Below are positions 4,973 to 50,730 of a stretch of 64,000 nt of DNA, piece after piece. Source of the DNA: a virus (lineage: Duplodnaviria; Heunggongvirae; Uroviricota; Caudoviricetes); the IMG/VR virus record IMGVR_UViG_3300042940_001755; one strand, written 5' to 3'. A program made the translations under genes and the position numbers. Below the pieces are notes generated by a model. That model was not told the origin of the DNA. It did not search any database and saw nothing but the letters and a program-made list of their open reading frames with translations. Numbering within the stretch: the stretch's first letter is position 1; each line of letters begins with the position of its first letter.

Positions 4973-5554
4973 TTAGAACCCCTTTACGAATTCTTCAACA
5001 GTACCGTCAGCTACAGCTGCTTTATACAAAGCATACTTAGCGCGGCAAGCATTACCATGAGCGGCTGAGATTTCTTTAGCTGCCTTACAATCTGCCAAGT
5101 ACAGATCTCTACCAGCAGCTGCGGCTTCGTTCAATTTAGGCTTCACAGCCTCTTTAATTGCTTCGTAATTGGCAGTTACAAACACAGCTAAATCTTCATC
5201 ACCTTTCGCCAATTCTTTAACACCTGACGCAATCTTCGCAGCCAATTCAGCTGTAGAAAGCTTCGGCATTGCGATAGAAATACGGTCGGCATTGGCGATG
5301 AACCACGCGTCACCTGTAGCAGCTAAATGGTCCGCTAGCTCTTTCTTGACAGCAGCTGCATCGCTCTTAGTAATGCCCATAAGCGCAGTACGGTTGTCTA
5401 GAATCCAAGCAGTGATCTCTGCGTTGTCTTTGGTGATGATGTCTACCGCTGGCTTCAATTCAATTGCTGCTTGGGCCGCTGAGTGAGCTTTGGTAGCTTC
5501 AGCCATTGTAGAGAATTCAGTCATAACGCCGTTGATTTCGATTTTAATGCTCAT
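4973..5554 (-). CDS. Hypothetical Ala-rich protein, paralog family member 1 (start MSIKIEING)
   Basis: ~70% identical to CDS 7574..8155, including the identical C-terminus GNACR.KYALYKAAVADGTVEEFVKGF. A class A motif lies 60-80 bp upstream. Confidence 0.6.
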   Translation of the reverse strand: MSIKIEINGVMTEFSTMAEATKAHSAAQAAIELKPAVDIITKDNAEITAWILDNRTALMGITKSDAAAVKKELADHLAATGDAWFIANADRISIAMPKLSTAELAAKIASGVKELAKGDEDLAVFVTANYEAIKEAVKPKLNEAAAAGRDLYLADCKAAKEISAAHGNACRAKYALYKAAVADGTVEEFVKGF

Positions 5555-5609
5555 TGTAACACTCCTAAGGATTTGCGAGGAACGAGTCCCCATTAAATAA
5601 AGTTATGAG

Positions 5610-7573: not shown

Positions 7574-8155
7574 TTAGAAGCCTTTTACGAATTCTTCAAC
7601 AGTACCGTCAGCAACAGCTGCTTTATACAAAGCATATTTTGAACGGCAAGCATTGCCATGAGCTGCACTGATTTCTTTAGCTGCTTTAACGTCAGCTAAG
7701 TACAAGTCACGACCTGTTGTAGCTGCTTCGTTCAATTTAGGCTTCACAGCCTCACGAATTGCTTCATAATTGGTTGTAACAAACGCAGCAACTTCTGGAT
7801 TGCCAGAAGCTAAAGTTTGAATACCGGCAGCAACCTTAACAGCTAATTCAGTTGCAGTTGGTTTAGCTACAGCGATTGAAATGCGTTCTGCATTAGCAAT
7901 CAACCAAGCATCGCCTGAAGCAGCGATATGGTCAGCTAATTCTTTCTTAGCTGTTGATGTATCAACTTTGGTTAAACCAACTAAAGCAATACGGTTGTCA
8001 ATGATCCACTGGCTTAAAGCTTCGTTGTTGTTAGTCAATACGTTGACAGCAGGTAACAATTCGATAGACGCAGTGTAAGCAGAATGAGCTTTAGTTGCTT
8101 CTGCCATTGTGTTGAACTCTACCATTTCGCCATTGATTTCGATTTTAATGCTCAT
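7574..8155 (-). CDS. Hypothetical Ala-rich protein, paralog family member 2
   Basis: Paralog of 4973..5554 (same N-terminus MSIKIEING and same C-terminus). Confidence 0.65.
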   Translation of the reverse strand: MSIKIEINGEMVEFNTMAEATKAHSAYTASIELLPAVNVLTNNNEALSQWIIDNRIALVGLTKVDTSTAKKELADHIAASGDAWLIANAERISIAVAKPTATELAVKVAAGIQTLASGNPEVAAFVTTNYEAIREAVKPKLNEAATTGRDLYLADVKAAKEISAAHGNACRSKYALYKAAVADGTVEEFVKGF

Positions 8156-16021: not shown

Positions 16022-17341
16022 TTAGCATATAACACCTGCTCTTGCTCTCTTGCGAATGTCTTCAAGGGAATCATCACAGTACGGCTGACCATTGAAGTAA
16101 TAGTCAACAAAGTCTGGATGTGTCAATCTGCCGCCCTTAGAGCGCTTACCAGGGTCTGTGACAGGGTCTTTCACAGTATCCACCCATTTGCCATTGATCT
16201 CCATCGCTGAAGTCTTTTGAGCAAACTTATAGGTGTCTCTGTTTAGTTTCTGTAGCAAGCCGCCTCCAGAACCATACACGACATTCTCGGCTGCGTAACC
16301 TTCTTGTTCCACTACTTGTGTCAGCTTTACTAACGTCTCGAAGTCAATACCATCCCCTTGAATGATGCCGACATTGCTCAAGACCTTGTAGCCTTTCGAG
16401 TTAACTGTGCTTTCAAAATACGCGTCAAGTATCTCCAGGATTAGAGGGATTACTTCGACAGCATCACCACTGTCAGGGCGGATAACAGCCTTGATTTTTC
16501 TTCTCTGAATTTCTGCACCGAAGACATTACAGAACATGGAGGTATCATTGTAGATATCATATCCGTCTAACACGATTGACACTATGCCACCATCAGGGAT
16601 AGCATCTAGTACTCTACGTAAATATCCTCCCTGATTGTCCCTTCCGTACGCACATTGAACACTATGTTCCGTCGCAGGGATAGAGAAGCCAGCCATTCTG
16701 CAGAAGTAATTGTCACGCGCCATTATCAGCGCTTGCAGGTTATCAGTTCCTTGGAAGTTAACTAAATGTGCCACACCACCAATTGCAGCTGACTCTCTGG
16801 AAGTTACGCCCCTGGCACCAAAGTCATGGAGAGCGTACGCAGCCATTTCAGGTACATCTGAAGTCTGTGCATACAACGATTCCAACAGCAATCGAGCCTT
16901 TAGGCCGTTAGAGGCAATCGTTGTAGGATACCAGATAGCTCTCTGCAACGCCGTTTCAATATACGACGCTAGCCAGAACAGTCTTGGATCTGTTGTCTCA
17001 ATCACCACTAAGGGTGTCCGAGATGGTACCACAGAGCCTTCAGGTAAGCCTTGTATTAGCAGTGGCAGAAAGCCATTGTGCTCGTCCACAATAATCTCCC
17101 AACCAATCTTATTAAAGGGCACCCCATGCGCGGAGAAGAGTTTCTCCGCTTCTCTTATATCCCCGTGAGTAACAGGCGTTGAGAGATACTCACGGATGAA
17201 CATTTGAAGACCAAAGAAGCAAGTAGCTTCGTTTGCTACTCTCGCTTCGATATAGGCGAACTGGCCTGTGCTGCCTTCTGGGTAGAATGCTGCATGTGAA
17301 GCTTTGTAGCTGTCAGCGTTTAAGATTAAATTGTGACTCAT
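16022..17341 (-). CDS. nadV: Nicotinamide phosphoribosyltransferase (NAMPT/NadV)
   Basis: N-terminal ADSYKASH motif diagnostic of NAMPT, plus ~440 aa length and the GDG/GSGGGLLQ phosphoribosyltransferase core. Confidence 0.85.
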   Translation of the reverse strand: MSHNLILNADSYKASHAAFYPEGSTGQFAYIEARVANEATCFFGLQMFIREYLSTPVTHGDIREAEKLFSAHGVPFNKIGWEIIVDEHNGFLPLLIQGLPEGSVVPSRTPLVVIETTDPRLFWLASYIETALQRAIWYPTTIASNGLKARLLLESLYAQTSDVPEMAAYALHDFGARGVTSRESAAIGGVAHLVNFQGTDNLQALIMARDNYFCRMAGFSIPATEHSVQCAYGRDNQGGYLRRVLDAIPDGGIVSIVLDGYDIYNDTSMFCNVFGAEIQRRKIKAVIRPDSGDAVEVIPLILEILDAYFESTVNSKGYKVLSNVGIIQGDGIDFETLVKLTQVVEQEGYAAENVVYGSGGGLLQKLNRDTYKFAQKTSAMEINGKWVDTVKDPVTDPGKRSKGGRLTHPDFVDYYFNGQPYCDDSLEDIRKRARAGVIC

Positions 17342-35962: not shown

Positions 35963-37912
35963 TCAGTGAGTCTCCTGCCAGTTATGCCCAATCTTGGCCT
36001 CACCTGCCATAATCATGACGTTGAACTGTTTTGGTCCCTCTGCAAAGGCCAGCGCAGCTAGCTCTGCAGCACGCGTAGCATCCTTCTCAAGAACCATGAA
36101 TTGGCACTCATCGTGCATAATAATACACGGCTTGTACTCAATCCCTTCTTCCTCAAATTTCTGCATCATCCACGCCACAGCTGACATACAAGTAATCTTC
36201 TCAGCTGACTGTAGCAGATACACCAACAGCTTGTGTTTGCTATCTACGTAGATACGATTGCCGGCCAGTGAAGGAATGTACGGGTCTCCTTTCTTCTTAG
36301 CTTGGACAAAAGTGTCATTGAGTCGTTTCAGCAGACCCTCGAACCCTGGCACTGACTTCGTAAAACCATCCTTGAATTCATTGCCGAGAGTGCTGTCTTG
36401 AGTCCCGAAGATATAGCTCCACAACTTACCGCCTGCTGCTCCGAATAAGAAGGCATACAAGATACGCTTAGCTGCCCCTCTTTTCTTACCGAACAAGACT
36501 TCTTCCAAGGTATGCTTCTCATCCGCAGCAGCGCCCTTATCAATCAAGTATTCATCCCAGCTGATGCCCATGCCAGTCAGCACCTTGTCAATGTTAGCTG
36601 CATTAAAGGCGTGGATGTCACCGCTCAAGAGTGTGTTGGTGAAATCTTCATTGTCAAGATAATGCGCGAGAGATCGTGCTTGGTTTCCTGATGAATCAGC
36701 TCCAATGAGTACATAGCCAGGATCTGCCATAAATAACTCACGCATCTCTTTACCATAAGCGCTAGTACTTGCAGGCACGTTAACGATAATACTATGACGA
36801 CTCCGCATACTAGGAGTGCCAACCAACATGCAGTCTCCGTGAACCCTACCATTTTTACACTCCTTAATCCAAGTATTGACAACAGCATGACGTGACTTTA
36901 CAGTCAAGAAATGCATATATAACGCGCCATCTCCTCCGAGGAACTCCAAAGACTCTAGAGTGATCTTTGGAGATGACTTCTCTTTCTTTCCGGTTTCTGG
37001 ATTCATCTTATAATTCCAATCCATCGGTTTCCAACCCAGCCTGTGCAAGAAGAGCTTCACATCATACACACTATTCAATGAAAGCTTCTCTGCTACACAT
37101 TTAGTGTAGGGACCGTCCATTAGTGGATCCGGGTCATTACCTGCTATAGGGTCAATATCGAACCATTTAGCCTGATGATGATTGTAGTTCCCATTCTTGA
37201 TCCACAAAGGGTGATGCACCTTTACCTCGCCTTTGCAGGCATCTGGTGCGGTTATCTTCCACCCAAGCTTGGTCTCTAACGTAAGGTACGCGTTGTCAAG
37301 CTCTAATTGCAAACTATCGCGCAGCACAGTGGCTTTGTCCAGGTCAAACGCCCAACCAGCTTCATTCGCTCTAGACACAAAATCAGCTACTGTGTGCTCA
37401 ATCTCGAGATAACGTTTCAGCTTGCCCTTAAGTACATCTACATTCTTCTTAGCGAATTCAGCCATTAAATGTGTGTAGACCTTATGACTCACCTCTACGT
37501 CTTGCTCACAGTACGTCAACATCTCTTCTGTGTAGTGAGTCCAATCGTGGTAATCCCCTTTAGCACAGCCAAGAAACTCACCCCAACGAGCCAGAGAATG
37601 CCCGGCTCCAGGACCGAACCGCCAATAGTCTAATACCTGGCTGAGTATCAGCGTGTCAACGATTCTACAATATTTCGGAGGCGAGTAGTGGAATAACTTA
37701 CGAAGTACTGCAAGGTCATAGTTGATGATATTGTGCCCTACCAATTTCTTAGCATGATCGAGCAGTACTCTCCAGCCTTCGTCGCCCTGCAGAAAGGTAT
37801 ACTTCTCACCTGTGTCGAGGTCTTTAGCGTGAAAGATCCACATAGTTGTGACATCTTTTAAGAGGTTGTCAGTCTCTATGTCAAATAGCAAGTTCATATC
37901 TTTGCCACCCAA
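35963..37912 (-). CDS. Family A DNA polymerase (T7 gp5-like) with 3'-5' exonuclease domain
   Basis: Exo I LLFDIETD; Pol motif A IGADSSGNQARSLAH; motif B RGAAKRILYAFLFGAAG; motif C IIMHDECQF. Confidence 0.9.
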   Translation of the reverse strand: MGGKDMNLLFDIETDNLLKDVTTMWIFHAKDLDTGEKYTFLQGDEGWRVLLDHAKKLVGHNIINYDLAVLRKLFHYSPPKYCRIVDTLILSQVLDYWRFGPGAGHSLARWGEFLGCAKGDYHDWTHYTEEMLTYCEQDVEVSHKVYTHLMAEFAKKNVDVLKGKLKRYLEIEHTVADFVSRANEAGWAFDLDKATVLRDSLQLELDNAYLTLETKLGWKITAPDACKGEVKVHHPLWIKNGNYNHHQAKWFDIDPIAGNDPDPLMDGPYTKCVAEKLSLNSVYDVKLFLHRLGWKPMDWNYKMNPETGKKEKSSPKITLESLEFLGGDGALYMHFLTVKSRHAVVNTWIKECKNGRVHGDCMLVGTPSMRSRHSIIVNVPASTSAYGKEMRELFMADPGYVLIGADSSGNQARSLAHYLDNEDFTNTLLSGDIHAFNAANIDKVLTGMGISWDEYLIDKGAAADEKHTLEEVLFGKKRGAAKRILYAFLFGAAGGKLWSYIFGTQDSTLGNEFKDGFTKSVPGFEGLLKRLNDTFVQAKKKGDPYIPSLAGNRIYVDSKHKLLVYLLQSAEKITCMSAVAWMMQKFEEEGIEYKPCIIMHDECQFMVLEKDATRAAELAALAFAEGPKQFNVMIMAGEAKIGHNWQETH

Positions 37913-38700: not shown

Positions 38701-39192
38701 TTAATAGTCGCCGTTGTCTTCTGGGAAGTCATCGTCATCGTCCTCATTTACTGCGAAATCAGGGTCTTCCTCGCGTACGTATTCGACAAGGTTAATGACC
38801 TTCATTGCCTCTAAGGTCGCTGCAATACCCTTCTTACCTTCAAAGTTGTATTCAAAGGTGCTGATCTTAATGAGGCCTGTTGAGCCGTTACCGATCAACT
38901 CGCCCTTTAGGATCTTGTTCTTAGCGTTCAAGATATTAGGTTTGCGGAACGGTTCACCTGTTTTAGGATTCAGGTAATTTTGTTTAGCAGTGAAGCTGTA
39001 GGTTACAGCGTCTGTGTTATCATCCACTTCCTTCTTAATGTGGATGCCCAATGCTTTGACAGTTGGCAACAATTCTTTGTCGAACTCACAACGCACAGAC
39101 CAAGCCAACTTGGAGCTTAAGTCTTTACGAGGTTTGTCAGACAAGTTAGGGAATAAGAATGTTACTGCCAAAGTTGTTGTTTCACGAGCCAT
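38701..39192 (-). CDS. T7 gp2.5-like single-stranded DNA-binding protein, copy 1 of a tandem duplicate
   Basis: Small OB-fold-sized protein with an acidic C-terminal tail ending in an aromatic residue (EDDDDDFPEDNGDY). It sits between DNAP and RNAP as in T7. Confidence 0.6.
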   Translation of the reverse strand: MARETTTLAVTFLFPNLSDKPRKDLSSKLAWSVRCEFDKELLPTVKALGIHIKKEVDDNTDAVTYSFTAKQNYLNPKTGEPFRKPNILNAKNKILKGELIGNGSTGLIKISTFEYNFEGKKGIAATLEAMKVINLVEYVREEDPDFAVNEDDDDDFPEDNGDY

Positions 39193-39290
39193 GATACATC
39201 TCCAATATAGGGTTAGAGGACGACGGGATTGCCGCCCTCACAGATACTACGGTGACACAGATTAGAGACTGCGCCTCTCTCTTTTACTGC

Positions 39291-39782
39291 TTAGAAATCA
39301 GAATCATCTTCCGGAAAGTCATCAGATTCATCTTCATTTACTGCAAAGTCAGGGTCTTCCTCGCGTACGTATTCGACAAGGTTAATGACCTTCATTGCCT
39401 CTAAGGTCGCTGCAACACCCTTCTTGCCTTCAAAGTTGTATTCAAAGGTGCTGATTTTGACCTTACCAGTCGACCCATTACCGATCAACTCCCCCTTTAG
39501 GATCTTATTCTTGGCGTCGAGGATGTTAGGTTTGCGGAACGGTTCACCTGTTCTAGGATTCAGGTAATTTTGTTTCGCAGTGAAGCTGTAAGTTACAGCG
39601 TCTGTGTTATCATCCACTTCCTTCTTAATGTGAATGCCCAACTCTTTTACCTGAGGTAACAAAGCTTTATCGAACTCGCAGCGGACAGACCAAGCTAACT
39701 TGGAGCTTAAGTCTTTACGAGGTTTGTCGCTCAAGTTAGCGAATAAGAATGTTACATCTAGAGTTGTTGTTTCACGAGCCAT
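39291..39782 (-). CDS. T7 gp2.5-like SSB, copy 2 (about 92% aa identity to copy 1)
   Basis: Same length of 163 aa; tail ESDDFPEDDSDF; long runs of identical DNA with copy 1. Confidence 0.6.
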   Translation of the reverse strand: MARETTTLDVTFLFANLSDKPRKDLSSKLAWSVRCEFDKALLPQVKELGIHIKKEVDDNTDAVTYSFTAKQNYLNPRTGEPFRKPNILDAKNKILKGELIGNGSTGKVKISTFEYNFEGKKGVAATLEAMKVINLVEYVREEDPDFAVNEDESDDFPEDDSDF

Positions 39783-39791
39783 GATAGTTCC

Positions 39792-40320: not shown

Positions 40321-40534
40321 CTGTTCCTCCTTTGTTAATCAACACAGCTAAAGTGCAGAGCTGCTCCTGCGTAGTTACCTTTTGGACAATCTTACTCTTC
40401 TCAGCGAGGAGGTGGTACTTGTCGAATCCAAAGTTAGGCAGGCTGAATCTGACCATAATATCTTTGAATTCGGTTGTTTCTGCGTCCTTCTTAGAGGTGT
40501 CAGTGTCTACAACGACAAACTTCCAATCACTCAT
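40310..40534 (-). CDS. hypothetical protein (74 aa)
   Basis: Co-oriented ORF. Confidence 0.35.
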   Translation of the reverse strand: MSDWKFVVVDTDTSKKDAETTEFKDIMVRFSLPNFGFDKYHLLAEKSKIVQKVTTQEQLCTLAVLINKGGTDGD

Positions 40535-40866
40535 TCTAGCTCCTTTTCTTCTAAGCTAAGAGCCTCACCATTGACCATCACTATCTCGCCAGCACCAATG
40601 CTTCTAACAGCAGCAACGCTATCGATAAAGTCAACTAAGTCTTGGGAGAGTCTGTCTAGACTCGGCTTATTGCGGTACACTGCAATCAGGTTTACACGTG
40701 GACTCCCCTCTTCCCACTTAGTATGTAAATACCCAGAACTCAACACCCACACTGTCGTGACCGGCACAGGTGGTGTAAAATTAGGTCGTGACTCAGCTGC
40801 CAGAGCTGCGTAGTACGTATCATTTCCGCCCATTGTTTCCTCTATAATTGGATTAAGTGAAAGCAT
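40531..40866 (-). CDS. hypothetical protein (111 aa)
   Basis: Co-oriented ORF. Confidence 0.45.
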   Translation of the reverse strand: MLSLNPIIEETMGGNDTYYAALAAESRPNFTPPVPVTTVWVLSSGYLHTKWEEGSPRVNLIAVYRNKPSLDRLSQDLVDFIDSVAAVRSIGAGEIVMVNGEALSLEEKELE

Positions 40867-41617
40867 ATTCGCTCTCTAATACTGCATTGATGTCAAGTGA
40901 GCCGATTTCAAGACCTTCCCAGTTACCTGAGATATCATTCATCAGCGCTACTAGTGGATCGCTAGAGTACAGCTCAACAAACTTCTCTCTAGCGACTCTG
41001 AACAATACATCCATATCCGCACACAAACATCCGTAAGAGTCGTGGATGGTTGTCACAGGGAACTCACAGCCCACCTTAATCATCATTAAGTGTGCTGCAT
41101 CCATGCTATGAATGATATTAGGCGCTGCTCCTTGGCCTTGCTTGCGCTTAGCAGGGACTCGTTCTTCCTTGTGAAGTAGGCTAATCTTGATATCCTTGTG
41201 TCCATAAGACAGGATAACAGGCTTAATAGTGCCTTCTTCATAATGCTGAACCACTTTGAAGCCCGTTACAGGGACAGTCCAGCTGAGGAATTCACCTCTT
41301 TTCTCAGCAGCAATCCCTGCATTACTGAATATCTCAAGAAGCTTCATGGGTTTATTCATGCTATCTTTGCAGCTAGCGTAGATTAGTCTTCCCATGAATG
41401 CTCCCCATTTCCTGTCCAGGTCTAAGAGCGAATCGATGCCGTGCTTCTTGGCATCTTCTATGACCTGCTCAGACATCCCATAAGAAACTGCACCGTATGG
41501 GATAGTCATTACTCCCGCTTGTGTTCCGTAGATGTCGTTAGTTTCTACGCGTAGTTGGTCGCTTGTGTTATCTGACAAAATTGCCAAAAATCTTCTTTCT
41601 CGCTTTCTTCGCTGCAT
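40853..41617 (-). CDS. Single-subunit (T7-like) RNA polymerase, C-terminal segment (exon 2 or C-terminal half of a split gene)
   Basis: AGVMTIPYG .. APNIIHSMDAAHLMM .. VTTIHDSYGCL .. terminal EYAFT aligns with the T7 RNAP C-terminus (SVMTLAYG .. PNFVHSQDGSHL .. LIHDSFGT .. FAFA). The real 5' boundary is unresolved. Confidence 0.8.
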   Translation of the reverse strand: MQRRKRERRFLAILSDNTSDQLRVETNDIYGTQAGVMTIPYGAVSYGMSEQVIEDAKKHGIDSLLDLDRKWGAFMGRLIYASCKDSMNKPMKLLEIFSNAGIAAEKRGEFLSWTVPVTGFKVVQHYEEGTIKPVILSYGHKDIKISLLHKEERVPAKRKQGQGAAPNIIHSMDAAHLMMIKVGCEFPVTTIHDSYGCLCADMDVLFRVAREKFVELYSSDPLVALMNDISGNWEGLEIGSLDINAVLESEYAFT

Positions 41618-42008
41618 TAGCCGCAGCCTCTACCGTTGCAAAGGTACCTACAGTCTTGTTAACACCCCCTTCACAGACTCTAGCACGGTATTTACCAGAC
41701 TTCGTTGCAGTTACACCTTTAGCGCCGGTCTTCGCTCCTTTATTAGGAAGCGTGTTAATACGGTTCTCAGCCACTGAGGCTGCCCTCAGATTAGATATCT
41801 TGTTATTAGCAGGATTTCCATCCTTATGATCAACAACCTTCCCTTTCGGCACTGCTCCTTTATGCATCTCAAACACAATACGATGCACCATTGTCTTCTT
41901 GCCATTCTTCTCTACTTGCACATGCCCTTTGCTATTAGGCGAACCTGCCTTGCGGCCATTCTTGTGCAATAGCCCACCATTCTCTTTATCATAGAGATAC
42001 TCTACCAT
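41568..42008 (-). mobile_element. HNH-AP2 homing endonuclease ORF inserted within the RNA polymerase gene
   Basis: HNH motif GHVQV..MVHRIVFEMHKG..VDHKDGNPANNKISNLR and AP2 domain GVTATKSGKYRARV..TFATVEAAANA. It has its own strong RBS AAGAGGAGG and is in a different frame from the RNAP pieces. Confidence 0.8.
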
Positions 42009-42111
42009 ACAACCTCCTCTTTTGTAGCGACCAGCTACTGCTGCATATTCCGATGCAGGCCAGACTATATCACGATAGCAAATAGCTACCTCCCCCGTTT
42101 CCTGACACTTG

Positions 42112-43653
42112 TCAGTACGCCTTACGGCTAGTCGTTGAACCTTCTTTCAAACCATACTTCCCAGCATTATTTGAAACCTTGGCTGCTGATTGGCCATTAG
42201 CATCACACCATTGGGCTGTTCCAGCAATTAAAGGGATTTTACAAGCGCCTGTAATTAAACGCTTGACTATCTTTCTACGTTCTTTCTTGTCCTTGATACG
42301 ATTCCAGAATATGAAACAAGCAGAATCTTCTAGGAAATGATTTGCCTCTCTGTAGTTCTTTAGTCGTTCCCCTAAGACAACTCTGAGATCACTCCCACGC
42401 TCTGCAGCTCGCACTTCAGCCTTCATTTCTGTAACGACTGTGACGTAATTATCAGCAGCCGCCACTAATTTAGGGTCTAATTCTGCGATTGTCAGCGCGA
42501 TAAAGTTCCAGAGAGAATTTGCAACATACGCATACAAGTCACCAGGAAGTACTGATTTGACAAGATTCACATAGGGCGCAGATGTTTCATCTCTCGTCAG
42601 CATAGCTAGATGTTGACTTCCATTGGTGCTTCCGTCTATGAAGCACTCAAGATGGCTCACAAAAGTCTCTGGATTGCCACTTCGCCATGCTGCTTCATAC
42701 TCCATACAGGCTGCTAAGAACTGCCAGCACTTGTCAGCGCCCATCCACCCTTTAAAGAGCTTGGGTGATGTAGCATACGCCATGATTAGCTCATGATTAT
42801 CATCTACCCACTGCACTCTTTCCTCCAAAGGGATCTTGTCAGTCTTTGCTTTGTCTTCTCTGGCAGAAGTGCCCGCCCAGTTACTGGCAATTGATATCTT
42901 CAGCCATTTAAAGCCAATAGCTCCTAGCGGTTTTGCATCAGCTCGTAGTAGAAGGCCTTTGGCAACATCAGCGCCTTGTTCATGGAGGTAAGCAGATGCG
43001 ACATAGATACGTCCTCTGAAGTCTGTGTAGTAACCATGGTAGAAGATAGCACCTGCCAGATCTTGCGCCATTGTCAGGACTGTGTTGACTTCTCTACCTT
43101 TGGTGATTCTTGCCTCCTTTGAGACTTGTTTCCAAATATCTGAGAAGGCTTCCTCACGGTACTTATGCGCCCATATAGCAATTGCCAGCACTCTCTCGTT
43201 TACTTTCCATCCTACTGCTTGGGCACGGTTAACAGCGTCCAATACCATTGCAGGAACAGCCGGTAATACTGCTCGCGTCTTGATAAGTGGGTAAGTCAGC
43301 TGATCGTGTGTCCTAGAAGTCCAAGGAGAGTAAGGAATAAGTGAAGGGTAGACTGTAGTACTCTGTTTGGAACACTTCCGCCAAGCCTCCACAATAGCCT
43401 CATCATTCAGAACAGCCACTGTGTAGGCACTCTTCTTCCCTATACGTTCTACCTGTATCTTGAGAATCCTGGCAGCTTCAAGGTCGTAGACAAGATCTGC
43501 TGCTGCTTGTGCTCTTACTCTGGAACTGGGATCTCTGGAGAGTTTCGAGCCGAGCGCTGTCAGCACCTCTGACAACACTATTGGCTCATTATATTTAGCC
43601 CTTGTGTACAGAAACAACACCTCCGTAACAGTAGGACAAAGTTCACTAAGCAT
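42112..43653 (-). CDS. Single-subunit RNA polymerase, N-terminal segment (exon 1 plus read-through into the insertion)
   Basis: YHGYYTDFRGRIY and ECFIDGSTNGSQHLAMLTRDE align to T7 RNAP DWRGRVY and DGSCSGIQHFSAMLRDE. The last ~90 codons have no RNAP similarity, so they are probably intron or insert-derived. Confidence 0.8.
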   Translation of the reverse strand: MLSELCPTVTEVLFLYTRAKYNEPIVLSEVLTALGSKLSRDPSSRVRAQAAADLVYDLEAARILKIQVERIGKKSAYTVAVLNDEAIVEAWRKCSKQSTTVYPSLIPYSPWTSRTHDQLTYPLIKTRAVLPAVPAMVLDAVNRAQAVGWKVNERVLAIAIWAHKYREEAFSDIWKQVSKEARITKGREVNTVLTMAQDLAGAIFYHGYYTDFRGRIYVASAYLHEQGADVAKGLLLRADAKPLGAIGFKWLKISIASNWAGTSAREDKAKTDKIPLEERVQWVDDNHELIMAYATSPKLFKGWMGADKCWQFLAACMEYEAAWRSGNPETFVSHLECFIDGSTNGSQHLAMLTRDETSAPYVNLVKSVLPGDLYAYVANSLWNFIALTIAELDPKLVAAADNYVTVVTEMKAEVRAAERGSDLRVVLGERLKNYREANHFLEDSACFIFWNRIKDKKERRKIVKRLITGACKIPLIAGTAQWCDANGQSAAKVSNNAGKYGLKEGSTTSRKAY

Positions 43654-43990
43654 ATTGTCTCCAATTAGCAGTTTTACATCATGCTTAGGATATCGGAAAT
43701 GTAATGTTACCTTTTCTTGTGCGCAGGTGGCTTGCGTGGCTTGCCAGATAATTGACAGACTACTGCCGACACTAAGTAAATTACGAGGAATCTAACCAGC
43801 ATCGTGGACTCCTTTCGCTACAAGATAAATAACGCTTGATACAACGATTGCAGGGACACTAGGCCCCAATAAAACAGCACCTGCAATAACAGCAATTAAC
43901 ATAATGGTCCTCACTGTGATCGCAGATACGAACAGCTAATTTGAGTTGAATTTAAAAAGATAAAGGAAATACACTAAAGTCCCTAACAGC

Positions 43991-44209
43991 TTAACTGGGC
44001 ACTACCCTCGACACGCAGGAATGATTCGCATCCCTGTCTATGTCTTTCTTCTTAGCACGAAGCGAACGCTCCCACGCTTTCAGATATACTTCGATATCAT
44101 CTAGTTCCCACTCAGCGCGGTCAGGTATCCGACCAGAATACCTTGCACACTTCATCTGTATGCTGTCTATTCCTAGACGCCCCATCACATACGTTTCATC
44201 AACTATCAT
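43991..44209 (-). CDS. hypothetical protein (72 aa)
   Basis: Co-oriented ORF. Confidence 0.35.
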   Translation of the reverse strand: MIVDETYVMGRLGIDSIQMKCARYSGRIPDRAEWELDDIEVYLKAWERSLRAKKKDIDRDANHSCVSRVVPS

Positions 44210-45450: not shown

Positions 45451-45717
45451 TCATTTGTTGAACCATTTCACCAAGCTGTAAACTGTCAAGCCTACAGCGG
45501 CGCCTAAGATAATTGGATTAACCGTTACAACTGCTGCTGCTGCTGAACGGGCCACGAATGGTAATACAACTTCCATACCAAGTGCTGTCACTGCCACTTG
45601 GGTTTCTACTGCAGCCAAACCTACGCTGACGACCATTGGCGCCATTTGTGTTGCCACTGCTGTTCCTGCTGCTGCTCCGAATGCTACTGCTGCTGTGTCT
45701 TGTGTTACTACTTTCAT
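45451..45717 (-). CDS. Small Ala/Val-rich membrane protein, family A copy 1 (88 aa)
   Basis: ~85% identical to 48677..48943; 2-3 predicted TM helices. Confidence 0.55.
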   Translation of the reverse strand: MKVVTQDTAAVAFGAAAGTAVATQMAPMVVSVGLAAVETQVAVTALGMEVVLPFVARSAAAAVVTVNPIILGAAVGLTVYSLVKWFNK

Positions 45718-45733
45718 GATAATACTCCTAAAT

Positions 45734-45810
45734 TGTGTTTAAAGTAGAGAGACGGAATTGTCTCTCTACCTGAATAGACTGTGGTCTGGTAAAACGGGAT
45801 ATCCGCTGCC
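45734..45810. repeat. Post-stop hairpin-pair element copy a (AGAGAGACGGAATTGTCTCTCT plus ACGGGATATCCG)
   Basis: Perfect 8-bp inverted repeat around GGAATT plus a GGATATCC palindrome; four copies in 45.7-48.7 kb, each starting at a stop codon. Confidence 0.7.
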
Positions 45811-45814
45811 TCAG

Positions 45815-46051
45815 TTATACGTTGATGTACAGTTGAGCGTAGCCGCCCAATTCTCTTTCTTCCACGCCAACGATGTAGACAGAGTCTTCTCTGCCTTCAA
45901 CGATGCGACCGAGGGCTTCACAGCCTCCGGCAAGGTACGCAATGCCATTGTACACGTGTCCTCTTACTGCCTCATTTTCGAACACTACTGCTCCGGCTTT
46001 CGTAGTGTATGTTACGTCGAAAGTGGTACCAAATAATTTAATTGTGCTCAT
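45815..46051 (-). CDS. hypothetical protein (start MSTIKLF, 78 aa)
   Basis: AGGAGA RBS before the internal ATG. Confidence 0.45.
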   Translation of the reverse strand: MSTIKLFGTTFDVTYTTKAGAVVFENEAVRGHVYNGIAYLAGGCEALGRIVEGREDSVYIVGVEERELGGYAQLYINV

Positions 46052-46231
46052 TGCGGCTCTCCTAGTTTGATGATAAAAGTGTTCTGAAGAAGTTGTCTTC
46101 TTCACGAGCTGATTTGCGCTCTTGCGCGATTTGTTTCAATGCCATCTCGATTGTGGCATTTAAACGTTCTTCAAGACTTCTAGTGTCTTCTACTAATGGT
46201 AATTCTGTGTTCATGATAATACTCCTAAAGG

Positions 46232-46298
46232 GGATAAGGCAGAGAGACGGAATTGTCTCTCTGCAGCGGTCTGATGAAACGGGATATCCGTTACCGCA
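46232..46298. repeat. Post-stop hairpin-pair element copy b
   Basis: Same two palindromes. Confidence 0.7.
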
Positions 46299-46725
46299 TT
46301 GATACTACATAACCGCGCATTGAGCCTGTAACTGATGCACCGATTGCATCCGCTACAGCTGTTTGGCGAGCCATTGATTCTCCAGCTAGCAACTGAAGAT
46401 TTACTTCTGATACACGAATGCGAACAAATCCGTTGTTCATTAGACCTGTTTCACGGAAAGTGTTGTAGCCGTCTCTTTCAAGCTCAACACCCATTGAGAT
46501 CAACTTAAGGATGATGCGTTGCGCATCACGATTGAAGATACCTCCGACTACTTCGTCGAGACCTTCTTGATACATGTCCATGTCGATGCATACTCCTGGG
46601 TTGTTTGCGATTACTTCGCGGATGGCTGCAAACTCACCACGCATTTCAATACGGGTGCCATTGTCTTCGAAACGGATACGAACGTTGTTTGCTGTAGTTG
46701 CTGCTGTTGTGTTCAATAAGTTCAT
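46291..46725 (-). CDS. hypothetical protein (start MNLLNTTAATT, 144 aa)
   Basis: Conserved initiation context GGAGTATTACCATG shared by the module genes. Confidence 0.45.
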   Translation of the reverse strand: MNLLNTTAATTANNVRIRFEDNGTRIEMRGEFAAIREVIANNPGVCIDMDMYQEGLDEVVGGIFNRDAQRIILKLISMGVELERDGYNTFRETGLMNNGFVRIRVSEVNLQLLAGESMARQTAVADAIGASVTGSMRGYVVSMR

Positions 46726-46801
46726 GGTAATACTCCAAATAAGATAAAATAATTGTGACCGGAATTGGTCTTGAAGGAACATCTTATGATGCAGGTGCCG
46801 C

Positions 46802-47077
46802 TTACGCAGCAGCTTTAAAGAATTTGACGACAGAGTACCCAATATCAGCATCACCTGTCAACTCCATTCCACCGAACTGCTCTGCCAAATACGCAGCGCG
46901 GTCAGCGTCATAGCTGAGGACGCTTAATTGCACTTCTGTGATGCCGACACTGATACGACCCATTTCATCACGGCGACTGTCATCGTAGTTGAAGCGGTCA
47001 TAAGCCACTTCGTTAAAGACCATACCTAATTTCAACGCTGCTGCTACTACTTCTTTTGCCAATACTAATGTGCTCAT
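46802..47077 (-). CDS. hypothetical protein (start MSTLVLAKE, 91 aa)
   Basis: RBS GGAGATTCAAAATG; class B motif ~70 nt upstream. Confidence 0.45.
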   Translation of the reverse strand: MSTLVLAKEVVAAALKLGMVFNEVAYDRFNYDDSRRDEMGRISVGITEVQLSVLSYDADRAAYLAEQFGGMELTGDADIGYSVVKFFKAAA

Positions 47078-47136
47078 TTTGAATCTCCGAATAAAATAAT
47101 TGTGACCGAATTGGTCATGAAAGGATACCTTTATCT

Positions 47137-47163
47137 CTTTCATATAAGATACTGCTTTCCGCG
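47137..47163 (-). promoter_or_regulatory. Class B T7-promoter-like motif copy
   Basis: Sense CGCGGAAAGCAGTATCTTATATGAAAGAGATAAAG. Confidence 0.5.
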
Positions 47164-47173
47164 TATTTGCTGC

Positions 47174-47461
47174 TTACACTCGTGACACTGAAGAGAAAAT
47201 AGCGATGATCAACCCACACATCAACATCCACCCAACGAGATAGATTGCCATCAACACTTTGAAAGAAAGAATCGCGACTGGAAGGAATGCTGCTCCGCAG
47301 TACGCTTCTGCAATAACGCCAATAATTGAAGCAGACACTGCTGCATCAGCTGTTACTTCAACTAATTCTGCTGCTGCTGTTTTAACTTCTAATACGCTTT
47401 TTACTGCTTTGATTGCTAATGAAACTGCAACTGCTGTGCCTAAGATTGCTAATGGTAACAT
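47174..47461 (-). CDS. Small hydrophobic membrane protein, family B copy 1 (95 aa)
   Basis: Paralog of 48271..48561; multiple TM segments. Confidence 0.55.
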   Translation of the reverse strand: MLPLAILGTAVAVSLAIKAVKSVLEVKTAAAELVEVTADAAVSASIIGVIAEAYCGAAFLPVAILSFKVLMAIYLVGWMLMCGLIIAIFSSVSRV

Positions 47462-47476
47462 GATAATACTCCTGAA

Positions 47477-47552
47477 TTGTGTTTAAAGTAGAGAGACGGA
47501 ATTGTCTCTCTACCTGAATGACCAGATTGTGGCGCAGGATATCTGCTGCTGG
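47477..47552. repeat. Post-stop hairpin-pair element copy c (variant second hairpin GCAGGATATCTGC)
   Basis: Same first palindrome. Confidence 0.7.
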
Positions 47553-48023
47553 TTAGTTGATTAATTTTGCAAGCTTGTGAACGCGTATCTCGGTCATGCA
47601 CCAGACCCACATACGACGAAGTAGACTTTTTTCCGTAGTCTTAAACGTTTGATACGCTTTCTTCAAGAAATCAATACCAGCTTCTGGAGACGCACCTAAA
47701 GACATCGCAACCGCGTCAGCAGCTGGTTCATCTCGTTCTGAAATCAGACGATACCCTTCAGCGATGTGTCCGCTCAAGATATGCCCAATTTCATGCAACA
47801 CAACAAAGTTAACTTCATCGGTTGGTGCAGTTGTTACAAGTGAAATACCAAGTACTGCCACAGCTCTTTCTGTAACTACAGACGCGTTGCCTACTTCTGG
47901 TAACATTGCCCGTATTGCAGCACCACCACCAGCAACCACATCCAACTCATGGTTGGCTTCGTGATTGATCCATACTTCTACACCGTGTATCTCTGCTTGA
48001 AATACTAAATTGCCCAAGTCCAT
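47553..48023 (-). CDS. Putative Zn-metallopeptidase (HExxH, ImmA/IrrE-like)
   Basis: VVLHEIGHILSGH contains HExxH plus a downstream H; 156 aa. Confidence 0.45.
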   Translation of the reverse strand: MDLGNLVFQAEIHGVEVWINHEANHELDVVAGGGAAIRAMLPEVGNASVVTERAVAVLGISLVTTAPTDEVNFVVLHEIGHILSGHIAEGYRLISERDEPAADAVAMSLGASPEAGIDFLKKAYQTFKTTEKSLLRRMWVWCMTEIRVHKLAKLIN

Positions 48024-48049
48024 CGTAATTCTCCAAAATGTTTAATTGA

Positions 48050-48247
48050 TTAGTTGGCAGCCCTGGCTGCCATTCTTGCACGCATTGCTGCCATTTGTGC
48101 TTCACGTGCAGCTGCTTTCGCTGCATATTCAGCTTGGAATGCTTCGTGCTCTTTGTCGAGCGCATCCGCCGTTTCAAACAATTCAATGCTGAAGTCAAGA
48201 CCGGTGTTTGCTCTTAATGTTTGTAACATGTCTACTGTAGTGTTCAT
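48050..48247 (-). CDS. hypothetical protein (start MNTTVDMLQ), Ala/Arg-rich C-terminus
   Basis: AGGAG RBS before the internal ATG at 48247. Confidence 0.4.
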   Translation of the reverse strand: MNTTVDMLQTLRANTGLDFSIELFETADALDKEHEAFQAEYAAKAAAREAQMAAMRARMAARAAN

Positions 48248-48270
48248 TGTAATGCTCCTGGTAAATTGAA

Positions 48271-48561
48271 TTAAATACGTGATGATGATGCTGAAAGAAC
48301 AAAGAGAATAAATCCGCACATTAGCACCCACCCCACAAGGTACATTGCCATGAAGATTTTGAAAGAAAGAATTGCAGTTGGTAAGAATGCTGCTCCAAAG
48401 AAAGCTTCAGAAACCATACCAACGATTACTGAAGATACTACTGCATCAGCTGTTACTTCAACTAATTCTGCTGCTGCTGTTTTAACTTCTAATACGCTTT
48501 TTACTGCTTTGATTGCTAATGAAACTGCAACTGCTGTGCCTAAGATTGCTAATGGTAACAT
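48271..48561 (-). CDS. Small hydrophobic membrane protein, family B copy 2 (96 aa)
   Basis: Paralog of 47174..47461. Confidence 0.55.
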   Translation of the reverse strand: MLPLAILGTAVAVSLAIKAVKSVLEVKTAAAELVEVTADAVVSSVIVGMVSEAFFGAAFLPTAILSFKIFMAMYLVGWVLMCGFILFVLSASSSRI

Positions 48562-48573
48562 GGTAATACTCCG

Positions 48574-48597
48574 AATAATAATAATAATAATAATAAA
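48574..48597. repeat. (AAT)8 microsatellite in the 5' leader of 48271..48561
   Basis: Read directly; absent from the paralogous leader at 47461-47480. Confidence 0.9.
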
Positions 48598-48677
48598 ATG
48601 TGTAAAGTAGAGAAACGGAATTGTTTCTCTACCTGAATGGACTGCGGTCTGATGAAACGGGATATCCGTTACCGCAT
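48598..48677. repeat. Post-stop hairpin-pair element copy d (AGAGAAACGGAATTGTTTCTCT variant)
   Basis: Compensatory changes keep the stem paired. Confidence 0.7.
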
Positions 48678-48943
48678 TATCTGTTGAACCATTTCACCAA
48701 GCTGTAAACTGTCAAACCGACAGCTGCACCGAGAATGATTGGGTTAACTGTTACAACTGCCGCAGCTGCTGAACGTGCTACAAATGGTAATACAACTTCC
48801 ATACCAAGTGCTGTTACTGCGATTTGTGATTCTACCGCTGCAAGACCAACGCTCAAAACTACTGGCGCCATTTGTGTTGCCACTGCTGTTCCTGCTACTG
48901 TTCCTGCTGCTGCTGCTGTTACTTCTTGTGTTAATGCTTTCAT
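48677..48943 (-). CDS. Small Ala/Val-rich membrane protein, family A copy 2 (88 aa)
   Basis: Paralog of 45451..45717. Confidence 0.55.
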   Translation of the reverse strand: MKALTQEVTAAAAGTVAGTAVATQMAPVVLSVGLAAVESQIAVTALGMEVVLPFVARSAAAAVVTVNPIILGAAVGLTVYSLVKWFNR

Positions 48944-49004
48944 GGTAATACTCCGAATAATTTAATTGTGACCGGAATTGGTCGTTGAAGGGATATCTTT
49001 ATCT

Positions 49005-49033
49005 CTTTCATATAAGATATCCCCTTTTGCGCG
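49005..49033 (-). promoter_or_regulatory. Class B T7-promoter-like motif copy
   Basis: Sense CGCGCAAAAGGGGATATCTTATATGAAAGAGATAAAG. Confidence 0.5.
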
Positions 49034-49034
49034 T

Positions 49035-49253
49035 TTACATGTCTACCAATTTAGACTGAAACTTGTCCTTCAGCACACAATGCACGCACACATGTACATG
49101 CTTGTTTGTTGCGCTGGAGAAATGGTAAAACGAATCGTAACGCTCTACTCCACCACATTCATCACAATACCCGTGATTGCGATCTGGAGTGGTGATGACA
49201 ACTTCTTCTTTAGATTTTACTGATGACATGGTAATACTCCCAAATGGATTCAA
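49035..49253 (-). CDS. hypothetical zinc-ribbon protein (CDECG .. CVHC)
   Basis: Two CxxC pairs. Confidence 0.4.
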   Translation of the reverse strand: MNPFGSITMSSVKSKEEVVITTPDRNHGYCDECGGVERYDSFYHFSSATNKHVHVCVHCVLKDKFQSKLVDM

Positions 49254-49626
49254 TTAATTGCGTGCCCGTGGACCAACTGCGAAGTAGAGCTTGTCACGCA
49301 AGCGCCATTTCTTCGTGGCAATGAGACCTTCGTGGAACTCGTGATACAAGATCACCGCTGCATACGCTACCGTTGCAAGCAGCGTTGTCCAAATACATGC
49401 CAACCCATACGTGCTCATACGCTCATCCCTGCTAAGATTTTCTCTACCCGTTCTGCCAAAGAATTGAAATGGTCTTCGCTGTCGCCACTCAATTCTTTAA
49501 AGGCAACCCCTGCTGCTGTTAAAATCTCTGTCAAATCTTCTACATCTTGAACTTCCAATACTGCACATAGTTTTAAACTAATCATAACGCCCTCGCTAAA
49601 GTTAGGAGCAGAACCATTTCTACTCC

Positions 49627-49654
49627 TTTCATATAAGATACTGCTTTCTGCGCA
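49627..49654 (-). promoter_or_regulatory. Class B T7-promoter-like motif copy, abutting a GAAAGGAG RBS
   Basis: Sense GCGCAGAAAGCAGTATCTTATATGAAAGGAGTAGAAATG; it precedes two small untracked ORFs (11 aa, then ~56 aa at about 49415..49585). Confidence 0.5.
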
Positions 49655-49655
49655 T

Positions 49656-49928
49656 TTACACTCTTATGGAACGCACCCAACTGTTGTACTCTTCTGAACC
49701 GACAATGCCGAAGGCCTTCTCAGCTGGTGTTAACACTTTGCACCCAGCCTTCTGCCACACTGCTTTCACTTTGTTGTCTGTTGTCGGCAAGCAAGCTGCT
49801 TGTGGCTCCCCATTCTTATTCACAATATACAGAATTGCGAATTGTGATTGCCAATAACGGCTGGACAGTTCTTTTGGGGTTGCAAAGGTTGGCATCCCAG
49901 GCAATACTTCGTAAGTCTCAAATAACAT
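49656..49928 (-). CDS. hypothetical protein (90 aa)
   Basis: Co-oriented ORF. Confidence 0.4.
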   Translation of the reverse strand: MLFETYEVLPGMPTFATPKELSSRYWQSQFAILYIVNKNGEPQAACLPTTDNKVKAVWQKAGCKVLTPAEKAFGIVGSEEYNSWVRSIRV

Positions 49929-49987
49929 AATATTTACTCCACTAGATTGATAAAAGGCGCAGAACCATTCCTACGCCTGCCACTACA

Positions 49988-50485
49988 TCACAACTTAATC
50001 GCTTTGATTATTTCATTATCCGTGAGTCTACTGAGATACTTTACATCGAGACCTATAACAGTTAACTCCGCATGCACTTCAATTAGTTTAGCCCGTTCCC
50101 ACTTATGCAAAGCCTCAATAGGTGCAACTTTCAACAGTCTACCGAGAGCAAGCTTGGTGTACAGTTCCCCTCTCCTTTTTGCCTCTGCTTTTGACATACG
50201 CTTTAGCGCGGCCAGATTAGCAACTATGAAGTTAACATGGATCACTGATTTGACCCTCTCCGTCTGGAACTCAAGACTGACGGAGTTTGCGGCTTCCTCG
50301 TAAGTCCTGTATAGCTTCCCGGCTGCCAGGAATAGAGGTGTTTTAGTTGTCACCTCCATGCAGTGCTTGACTACAGCGCCAGGACCGATGTCTACTATGG
50401 GCGTAGTGGTGCAGCTGAGGTTCAGCGCACTATTGAATTCCTCTACAGAACCCTCCCATTCTTTTAGTTCGATAAAATTGTTCAT
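49988..50485 (-). CDS. hypothetical protein (start MNNFIELKEW)
   Basis: The class B motif overlaps the ORF-track N-terminus; GGAGAACTATTATG. Confidence 0.45.
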   Translation of the reverse strand: MNNFIELKEWEGSVEEFNSALNLSCTTTPIVDIGPGAVVKHCMEVTTKTPLFLAAGKLYRTYEEAANSVSLEFQTERVKSVIHVNFIVANLAALKRMSKAEAKRRGELYTKLALGRLLKVAPIEALHKWERAKLIEVHAELTVIGLDVKYLSRLTDNEIIKAIKL

Positions 50486-50524
50486 AATAGTTCTCCTAAA
50501 TGACTGAATAACGGGATTGTTATC

Positions 50525-50554
50525 CATATCATATAAGATACCTAAAAATGCGCG
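50525..50554 (-). promoter_or_regulatory. Class B T7-promoter-like motif copy
   Basis: Sense CGCGCATTTTTAGGTATCTTATATGATATGG. Confidence 0.45.
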
Positions 50555-50730
50555 AGTACAAAGTCTCGATTATTCAGTCCTATGAATCTCCACCTAGCTA
50601 TCTTCGCCGAGAAGTCAACTGCTTCGCCATTATCGTCTATTAGCACCAGCTCATCTAGCTTAACTTCATTGAGGCTTCTCAGGAACTCTGCCGCCGCCTT
50701 TACTTCGCTTATCTTGAATTCTTTATTCAT
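50542..50730 (-). CDS. hypothetical protein (start MNKEFKISEV, 62 aa)
   Basis: The longer track ORF N-terminus is a translation of GC island 4. Confidence 0.35.
   Translation of the reverse strand: MNKEFKISEVKAAAEFLRSLNEVKLDELVLIDDNGEAVDFSAKIARWRFIGLNNRDFVLAHF

Follow-up and report, generated by a model that had tools for sequence, protein, structure and literature searches.

A T7-like RNA polymerase gene probably interrupted by a mobile group I intron with its own HNH endonuclease in an uncultured phage

The DNA considered here is a stretch of 64,000 nucleotides (nt), hereafter the window, from the viral record IMGVR_UViG_3300042940_001755 (Caudoviricetes), in which a gene for a T7-like RNA polymerase (RNAP) appears as two open reading frames (ORFs) on the minus strand that enclose a third ORF for a putative homing endonuclease. 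A first-pass annotation had taken the two outer ORFs for the N- and C-terminal halves of T7 RNAP, and this assignment was borne out: their coordinates are exact, Pfam RNA_pol is matched by both, and the quoted motifs were found, namely DFRGRIY at residues 211-217 and DGSTNGSQHLAMLTRDE at residues 340-356, and VMTIPYG, HSMDAAHL, IHDSYG and a terminal AFT in the downstream ORF. The upstream ORF matches T7 RNAP residues 398-601 and mitochondrial RNAP (E about 1e-30), and a phmmer comparison with the PDB supports a T7-like RNAP (E 7.5e-31). The middle ORF, in another frame, had been called an HNH-AP2 endonuclease with its own ribosome-binding site (RBS); the HNH_3 match lies above the Pfam cut-off and the RBS is present, while the AP2 match falls below its cut-off. 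The layout of the locus, with exon and intron boundaries as predicted, is as follows (aa, amino acids).

42112..43653, minus strand: ORF for the N-terminal part of the RNAP, 513 aa, matching Pfam RNA_pol positions 1-139 (E 6e-38)
42259..43653, minus strand: predicted RNAP exon 1, 465 codons, final bases ...AAG CGU
41516..42258, minus strand: predicted group I intron of IA2 type, 743 nt, opening directly after the U of the U·G pair and closing with the terminal G (41516)
42013..42020, minus strand: Shine-Dalgarno sequence AGAGGAGG, 4 nt upstream of the endonuclease ATG
41568..42008, minus strand: endonuclease ORF, 146 aa, Pfam HNH_3 (PF13392) 65.5 bits against a cut-off of 24.8
40853..41617, minus strand: ORF for the C-terminal part of the RNAP, 254 aa, matching Pfam RNA_pol positions 162-373 (E 3e-31)
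40853..41515, minus strand: predicted RNAP exon 2, 220 codons plus stop, opening GGA GUA AUG (G466 V M T)

Exon 1, the end of which was placed by the U·G pair of helix P1 and by alignment to an intron-less relative (L002), encodes the reduced N-terminal domain and the T/DxxGR motif (D211-R215), together with motif A (D340) and the opening half of motif B (R460, K464, R465). The motif B residues Y472/G473 are encoded by exon 2, as are the specificity-loop region, motif C (H623 D624) and, at the C-terminus, ...EYAFT. The upstream ORF does end in a tail without RNAP similarity, as had been noticed, but this tail comprises 48 codons and not about 90; residues 404-465 of exon 1 resemble T7 poorly yet are conserved within the family. 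Intron sequence likewise accounts for the opening 34 codons of the downstream ORF. After splicing, the protein would thus count 465 + 220 = 685 aa, in agreement with the earlier estimate of about 680.

In a covariance-model search of positions 40500-44000 against all Rfam families, the group I intron model RF00028 was matched at 42323..42041 (minus strand) at 68.1 bits (E 2e-16; gathering score 50), and it is the sole Rfam family at threshold anywhere in the window. The elements of the predicted ribozyme were located as follows.

42024..42264, minus strand: ribozyme core, filling about the first 235 nt of the intron
42264-42259 with 42248-42243, minus strand: P1, read from sequence
42236-42231 with 42096-42091, minus strand: P3
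42226-42221 with 42189-42184, minus strand: P4
42216-42214 with 42195-42193, minus strand: P5
42183-42181 with 42141-42139, minus strand: P6
42176-42169 with 42152-42145, minus strand: P6a
42133-42129 with 42067-42063, minus strand: P7
42128-42119, minus strand: P7.1, GCC-GUAA-GGC
42115-42102, minus strand: P7.2, CUGAC-AAGU-GUCAG
42090-42074, minus strand: P8
42058-42041, minus strand: P9
42038-42024, minus strand: P9.1
41527..41549, minus strand: conserved hairpin CGUAGA...UCUACG, a short way before the 3' splice site

The core helices are all present, including the P3-P7 pseudoknot, and the short inverted repeats that had been read as possible group I helices fall into place, CTGACAAGTGTCAG being P7.2 and CTGCATCGGAATATGCAG being P9. 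In P1 the end of exon 1, AAGCGU, pairs over 6 bp with GCGCUU, located 11-16 nt into the intron, so that U42259 stands opposite G in the canonical U·G pair; both this pair and the terminal G recur in the introns of two related contigs (L001 and L137). When the window was compared with the 73%-identical L001 intron, 99.2% of cells were paired over 62 pairs, five of them compensatory, and in a control with the partners slid by 1-3 columns 32-47% were paired; in addition, the hairpin next to the 3' splice site keeps 6/6 pairs in L001, three of them via compensatory change. As such a count draws on two sequences and has little statistical power, a covariance model of the 3' half (P7 to P9.1) was built and run on 98 loci, most of which had been retrieved via the 16-mer AAGGTTCAACGACTAG, found in at least 120 viral contigs. 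This model recovered 71 related introns (69 distinct sequences), with 97.3% of cells paired (31-41% when slid), 27 of 30 pairs covarying, and 0 of 500 shuffles reaching the observed values, in an alignment that was fitted to the model, which favours structure. Divergent introns were aligned by covariance model, MAFFT alignments being out of register in the variable helices. In the L137 intron nearly every position of P3 and P4 differs from the window while pairing is kept, as judged by eye.

Both P7.1 and P7.2 covary. Extra helices of this kind between P7 and the 3' strand of P3, along with similarity to T4-type introns, characterise subgroup IA2. The predicted intron is placed in this subgroup by the two helices and by the match of its nt 112-222 to the T-even intron of nrdB/I-TevIII (74-76% identical).

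The proposed splice sites lead to a precise expectation of the mature message. The intron would end in ...ACACAAGCG at 41516 (terminal ...AAGCG), directly before the GGA GUA AUG of exon 2, and joining 42259 to 41515, that is, exon-1 end ...AAGATAGTCAAGCGT onto exon-2 start GGAGTAATGACTATC, keeps the frame and gives a 685-aa protein reading ...ERRKIVKR/GVMTIPYGAVSYGM... (the slash marks the junction here and below). The predicted ligated RNA junction is ...AAGCGU/GGAGUAAUG... and the predicted junction peptide ...IVKRGVMTIPYGAVSYGMSEQVIEDAK. The junction falls between the residues that correspond to T7 R632 and S633, within the motif B O-helix (in T7, R627-S-V-T-K631-R-S-V-M-T-L-A-Y639-G). An identical protein would result if both splice sites were moved by one base, but this would violate the U·G and terminal-G rules, and the sites given here are therefore the canonical choice.

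A direct counterpart of the spliced sequence exists in nature. With the spliced protein as a query against 5.8 billion proteins, hundreds of homologues were obtained, one of which (P0001, 77% aa identity) is uninterrupted and reads ...RRKIVKRGVMTIPYGA...; its DNA (L002) is without exactly the 743 nt of the predicted intron, L002 position 2988 corresponding to window 42262 and 2992 to 41515. The junction region of this intron-less relative, ...KIVKRGVMTIPYG..., is identical to the sequence predicted for the spliced form. The homologue P0004 (82% identity), encoded on contig L001, stops precisely at ...KIVKR, and L001 displays the same three-part layout with a 736-nt intron scoring 64 bits in Rfam. 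In L001 and L137 a TAA stop is the first intron codon, straight after ...KR; relative to these, the window has one extra U at the start of its intron (UUAAUU vs UAAUU), which accounts for its not having this early stop.

These observations bear on the alternative raised in the first-pass annotation, a genuinely split RNAP, in which the ribozyme would be dead or irrelevant, the endonuclease free-standing, and the enzyme assembled from a 513-aa chain and one of about 220-254 aa in the manner of N4 RNAPII gp15/gp16. N4 RNAPII is indeed a natural two-chain T7-like RNAP (269 + 404 aa), but it is split between T/DxxGR and motif A, at about query residue 240, whereas the break in the window lies within the O-helix, between R465 and G466. 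Similarly, the in-frame 48-codon tail of exon 1 and the ATG at 41617 of the downstream ORF would both suit two separate chains; yet neither the tail nor the leader of the second ORF shows conservation at the protein level, in L001 and L137 the first intron codon is already a stop, and no RBS is evident for the downstream ORF itself, which starts within the end of the endonuclease gene. The ribozyme, for its part, clears the Rfam threshold by a wide margin, and compensatory changes keep its helices intact. Because the O-helix is broken, the ORF extensions are unconserved and the ribozyme is under structural selection, a two-chain enzyme is considered very unlikely.

The endonuclease ORF occupies the intron's 3' extension, downstream of P9.1. 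The HNH region of the encoded protein aligns with I-HmuI (PDB 1u3e, E 8e-5), ...VVDHKDGNPANNKISNLR being the aligned segment, and keeps the DH...N...N signature. Annotated HNH homing endonucleases from many phages, Felix-O1-like and T5-like ones among them, share about 37% identity with the protein, and its L001 orthologue shares 77%; the protein occurs in identical form on 13 contigs. By its sequence the 146-aa product is an I-HmuI-like HNH homing endonuclease of predicted activity. No second gene like it was found in the window. A separate, free-standing HNH endonuclease of 305 aa is located at 3284-4201. An intein was ruled out, there being no in-frame insertion and the endonuclease ORF lying in another frame. 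A further candidate (L008) for this endonuclease in a new context turned out to be no more than a short fragment of this locus. The 10-nt sequence AACACAAGCG is present as an exact direct repeat at 41560-41569 and 41516-41525 (minus strand), where it spans the endonuclease stop codon and forms the last 10 intron nt, respectively; its counterpart in L001 is imperfect, and it may be a trace of the entry of the ORF into an ORF-less intron, or chance.

Taken together, the Rfam score, the splice-site features, the intron-less relative and the compensatory changes favour, with a probability of about 0.9, a single T7-family RNAP gene interrupted by a mobile IA2 group I intron with an HNH/AP2-type endonuclease, much as first proposed, with splicing as a prediction from sequence. 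According to this model, the pre-mRNA would splice itself, beginning with attack of guanosine behind the U that stands opposite G in P1 and followed by exon ligation after the terminal G; ...RRKIVKR would thereby be joined to GVMTIPYG..., restoring the O-helix of motif B and an active polymerase of 685 aa. The endonuclease would be translated from the precursor or the excised intron, and would cut or nick intron-less RNAP alleles of co-infecting relatives near the insertion site, whereupon repair would copy the intron in. Homing of this kind would lead to a patchy distribution of the intron, and the presence/absence polymorphism among near relatives offers indirect support for it.

Several features sit less comfortably with this proposal. 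The ribozyme has no P2, and P10 is weak and offset (exon-2 GUAAU with AUUAC in the P1 loop). The frame of exon 1 reads 48 codons into the ribozyme (42112-42258, P1' to P7.1), with a UGA stop inside P7.2; ribosomes entering the core of the window intron might hinder its folding and lower splicing efficiency. Translation is known to affect the splicing of T4 introns. The covariation in 69 distinct introns was counted on an alignment fitted to the model, and the AP2 domain of the endonuclease (PF00847) reaches 28.7 bits, below its cut-off of 33.3 (E 1.6e-6).

It was also considered that the locus might be a decaying RNAP pseudogene disrupted by a selfish element, in a phage that relies on host RNAP or another polymerase. 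Just 64 kb of a genome of approximately 107.6 kb are in view, and possible sigma70-like repeated motifs occur in the early region, as such a phage might have. Nevertheless, both exons are intact and in frame, the catalytic residues are all conserved, and the exons resemble those of L001 more closely in protein (82% identity) than in nucleotide sequence (70-77%), as under purifying selection; the same arrangement is moreover seen in several diverged phages, and the spliced product is modelled with a predicted local distance difference test (pLDDT) score of 92. Decay of the gene is therefore even less probable than a split enzyme. As the sequence derives from metagenomic assemblies, an assembly or chimera artefact also had to be weighed, but it is essentially refuted: independent assemblies of four samples (JGI 3300044516, ENA ERZ28008667, Logan SRR27420449 and JGI 3300044632) are 99.98-100% identical over the region and give the same interrupted sequence, and a 73-77%-identical version exists in L001. 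The matching loci in independent assemblies (107,670 bp in JGI 3300044516 and 107,624 bp in ENA ERZ28008667) indicate a genome of about 107.6 kb and a reproducible interruption. Other searches for matching DNA were less productive: megablast of the region against 50,697 phage records gave zero matches, IMG/VR scans for near RNAP relatives and a 24-nt core motif gave nothing useful, and scans of metagenome contigs with protein patterns and an intron DNA pattern gave zero matches in a collection that evidently is without the source samples.

The second unusual property of this gene is the small size of its product. With 685 aa against 883 in T7, the RNAP is 198 aa shorter, and, as had been pointed out, the DxRGR motif comes early, at residue 211 as compared with 421 in T7. 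The catalytic residues nonetheless align, R460/K464/Y472 with T7 R627/K631/Y639, D340 with D537, and H623-D624 with H811-D812. An AlphaFold model of the spliced RNAP is confident throughout (pLDDT 92.4, predicted TM-score (pTM) 0.88), with a helix (456-468) continuous over the junction; its best Foldseek match is the T7 RNAP promoter complex 1cez (TM-score (TM) 0.77, E 1e-28), and hhalign relates the protein to T7 RNAP with a probability of 100%. As modelled, the predicted product is a coherent T7-like single-subunit RNAP (PF00940) with motifs T/DxxGR, A, B and C.

The claim that the N-terminal promoter-binding domain is strongly reduced was upheld in part: the domain is truncated, and Pfam RPOL_N (T7 residues 1-325) was not detected in the window RNAP, but it is not absent, since an equivalent of T7 residues ~200-325 including the intercalating hairpin is retained. 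In the profile-profile alignment, window residues ~41-100 (helix, β-hairpin 64-81, helix) fall on T7 ~200-275, which includes that hairpin, whereas T7 residues 1 to ~190, comprising the N-terminal subdomain, the AT-rich recognition loop and subdomain H, could not be matched convincingly in this alignment; likewise, hhalign confidently covers the T7 N-terminal domain at residues ~200-325 only. The specificity-loop region is kept at about the length found in T7. A separately encoded T7-type N-terminal domain was not matched by any ORF of the 64-kb window, about 44 kb of the genome lying outside.

A family profile built from 74 members, typically 738-760 aa long, meets T7 only from T7 residue 294 (profile position 157). 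In comparison with the family majority, the window RNAP is missing a further 29 N-terminal residues and a few short segments, and its start position is shared by its nearest relatives (P0002, P0003 and P0004). Among the nearest ~60 cluster representatives from a library of 1.8 billion proteins, short RNAPs of 650-775 aa dominate, and the 732-aa RNAP of roseophage DSS3_PM1 (Naomviridae), the closest cultured relative at 33% identity, matches the family profile end to end (E 3e-175). The compactness is thus real, but it is a trait of a large clade (685-775 aa) that includes cultured Naomviridae and otherwise consists of uncultured phages, probably marine to judge by the closest cultured relatives. 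Judging from sequence comparison, the window RNAP may be a naturally minimal single-chain promoter-specific enzyme without the AT-rich-loop half of the T7 N-terminal domain.

Introns at the position seen in the window, and at other positions in the same gene, were found in further phages. Besides the window, L001, L137/L138 and L141/L142 (at least three further relatives) carry an intron at this same site, and it is missing from L002 and from most of the ~120 full-length homologues listed, a patchy distribution among relatives of the type expected of homing. Exon 2 alone, used as a query, retrieved dozens of ORFs of 218-233 aa inside long contigs, some opening MTLPYGG... or MNVMT..., others homologous only from ...GGTAYG after residues like EHND, together with ORFs of 353-358 aa opening MSNNGSQH; one apparent case (P0149/L131) was rejected as an uninterrupted gene ended by the contig edge. 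The loci read were the following.

L137 (NCBI GCA_006365055.1, 72.6-kb contig): same site as the window, exon 2 54% identical, reading ...RRKVVKR/UAA...
L141: same site as the window, with an HNH_3/AP2 ORF
L132, L133 and L134: insertion behind the first base of the codon for the Tyr that corresponds to T7 Y639, 19 nt downstream of the window site, Rfam 55, 44.8 and 77.3 bits
L139, 1854-5574 (Logan ERR12387305): RNAP gene in three pieces, introns at FYH/LYYYDFRGR and YIDG/SNNGSQH
L136, 8042-11276 of Pseudomonas phage Draal02 (PP179321): RNAP annotated as two coding sequences, with a 174-aa ORF of no known family between them

The L137 intron repeats P1 as in the window (AAGCGU/GGCGCUU, here the two paired strands), scores 80.7 bits in Rfam and contains an HNH_3 ORF, its exon 2 opening NVMTLPYG. 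No ORF is present in the L134 intron or in the 3' part of the L132 intron retained at a contig edge, and in L133 a 106-aa ORF was called upstream of the core; the RNAP of L134 is of the classical long form with RPOL_N and adjoins an integrase. It was also observed that the 3' ends of the L133 and L134 introns (GAACACUAAUG) resemble that of the window (GGAACACAAGCG). The two introns of L139 score 67.3 and 55.6 bits and each contains an HNH ORF. The RNAP of P0002 (JGI 3300059473), which shares 83% identity with the window protein, breaks off after GVMTIP, and the ORF that follows encodes a different HNH_3 protein. In Draal02 the break is read as KTPV/MTYVYG, at the Val634-equivalent codon of motif B and 5 nt downstream of the window site, and in our reading its RNAP gene probably holds an unannotated group I intron.

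Accordingly, at least five insertion sites were read (FYH/LYYYDFRGR, YIDG/SNNG, KR/xVMT, V/MT and inside the Tyr639-equivalent codon), and some RNAP genes have two introns. The resolved breaks lie within or next to T/DxxGR, motif A and motif B, a pattern expected for homing endonucleases aimed at invariant sequence. A wider proposal, which we put forward tentatively and would on balance not yet favour, is that the catalytic motifs of T7-family RNAPs are a recurrent target of mobile group I introns in environmental phages, that the endonucleases may cripple the RNAP of co-infecting relatives like gp210 of phage PhiPA3 (see below), and that the polymerase hosting the intron may be naturally minimal.

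With regard to the remainder of the window, all large ORFs lie on the minus strand in T7-like order: small early genes, the RNAP, two tandem single-stranded DNA-binding protein (SSB)-like genes, a kinase-like gene and a family-A DNA polymerase (DNAP), then exonuclease, primase-helicase, helicase, ribonucleotide reductase, NAD-salvage genes and ligase, with tail-fibre-like and very large proteins at 52-64 kb. The DNAP is 32-33% identical to those of Pelagibacter phage Kolga and Naomviridae, and the source is, on sequence grounds, probably an uncultured marine phage far from any isolate. A 163-aa gene is tandemly duplicated at 38717-39196 and 39307-39786 (minus strand, 88-89% nt identity), its relative in a related contig giving faint or weak Pfam matches to ssDNA-binding families (Enc34/T7 SSB). 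The NAD-salvage genes at 16022-17341 and 18234-19193 (minus strand) encode a nicotinamide phosphoribosyltransferase and an NMN adenylyltransferase-Nudix fusion. Two paralogous genes of ~200 aa (4973-5593 and 7574-8155, minus strand) lie 2.6 kb apart with 73-76% nt identity; one copy was compared with PHROG and gave no match.

The early region (45453-50560) is rich in repeats; it contains the duplicated segments 47193-47472/48293-48572 and 45453-45731/48679-48957 (both 84% identical) and four copies of the hairpin AGAGAGACGGAATTGTCTCTCT. The motif TTTCATATAAGATAC occurs five times, four in the early region and once at 13333, and its copies, when read on the coding strand, could be early promoters. 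At the start of the window a 161-nt tandem duplication (1-322) is followed at 1227-1352 by an array of about 4-5 copies of the 21-nt unit GAGGGTAAGGTTTGGCTTACT, and this region is a possible origin or genome end.

That mobile IA2 introns with HNH endonucleases reside in essential phage genes is classical knowledge, and what appears most worth following is that, within a large clade of short polymerases, introns occupy several sites in the catalytic motifs of the RNAP. For annotation, the consequence is that such genes are recorded as two 'RNA polymerase' fragments plus a hypothetical protein, as in Draal02 and all metagenomic records examined, while recognition of the intron would yield the true 685-aa product. 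The T7-type RNAP would thereby be added to the phage genes colonised by group I introns, and the locus would offer a natural system for intron-mediated competition between phages. Similarly, the clade of 685-760 aa, with hairpin and specificity loop and without approximately the first 190 T7 residues, constitutes a natural experiment on the need for the N-terminal domain and a possible source of smaller transcription enzymes.

Group I introns in a T7-type RNAP gene were not found described in the literature searched, the coverage of which is incomplete and no proof of absence; nevertheless, several known systems resemble parts of the one proposed here. The T-even IA2 introns (nrdB/I-TevIII, td/I-TevI, nrdD/I-TevII) share with it the P7.1/P7.2 class, a free-standing endonuclease ORF with its own RBS and an insertion point where the gene, which encodes an essential phage enzyme, is highly conserved. 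They differ in that the window intron is hosted by a single-subunit RNAP gene, encodes an HNH_3+AP2 endonuclease, has no P2 and is read deep into its core by the exon-1 frame. The placement of the ORF after P9.1 is as in nrdD/sunY, the nrdB ORF being in the P6 loop.

The introns of SPO1 (I-HmuI), Bastille (I-BasI), Pf-WMP3 (I-PfoP3I) and the T7-like phiL7 lie in DNA polymerase genes and involve HNH nicking endonucleases; as in the window, the HNH protein is related to I-HmuI and the site is a polymerase active-site motif, although the target in the window is the RNAP instead. For Pf-WMP3, an intron of type IA2 is described that interrupts a T7-like phage's gene for DNA polymerase (PMC3428280). 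In the window phage the DNAP (35963-37912) is a single ORF of 649 aa.

An RNAP gene is also the site of PhiPA3 gp210, an HNH endonuclease in a putative group I intron at a highly conserved site of the phage RNAP beta-subunit gene, for which a competitive role has been demonstrated (PMC11620839). However, the polymerase of this jumbo phage is multisubunit and RpoB-like, its fold being unrelated to that of T7 RNAP, whereas the window encodes a T7-type enzyme. Draal02 is a T7-like podovirus in culture, and in its RNAP gene motif B is disrupted by intron-like sequence and an ORF. Unlike the window phage, it has a classical long RNAP with RPOL_N, and its 174-aa ORF is without Pfam match and lies upstream of P7. 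Its Rfam match is just 25.6 bits because the ORF splits the core, which resembles that of L134, and the paper on this phage makes no mention of an intron (PMC11256456).

As for the polymerase itself, T7 RNAP and mitochondrial RNAP have the same fold and all the catalytic motifs of the window enzyme, and the Naomviridae (DSS3_PM1/VP1), unlike the window phage, have an uninterrupted RNAP gene. N4 RNAPII, with 673 aa in total and 25-27% identity to the window RNAP over short stretches, has a similarly short N-terminal part, but is encoded by two genes and split at another position; it is the older precedent of a short T7-like enzyme.

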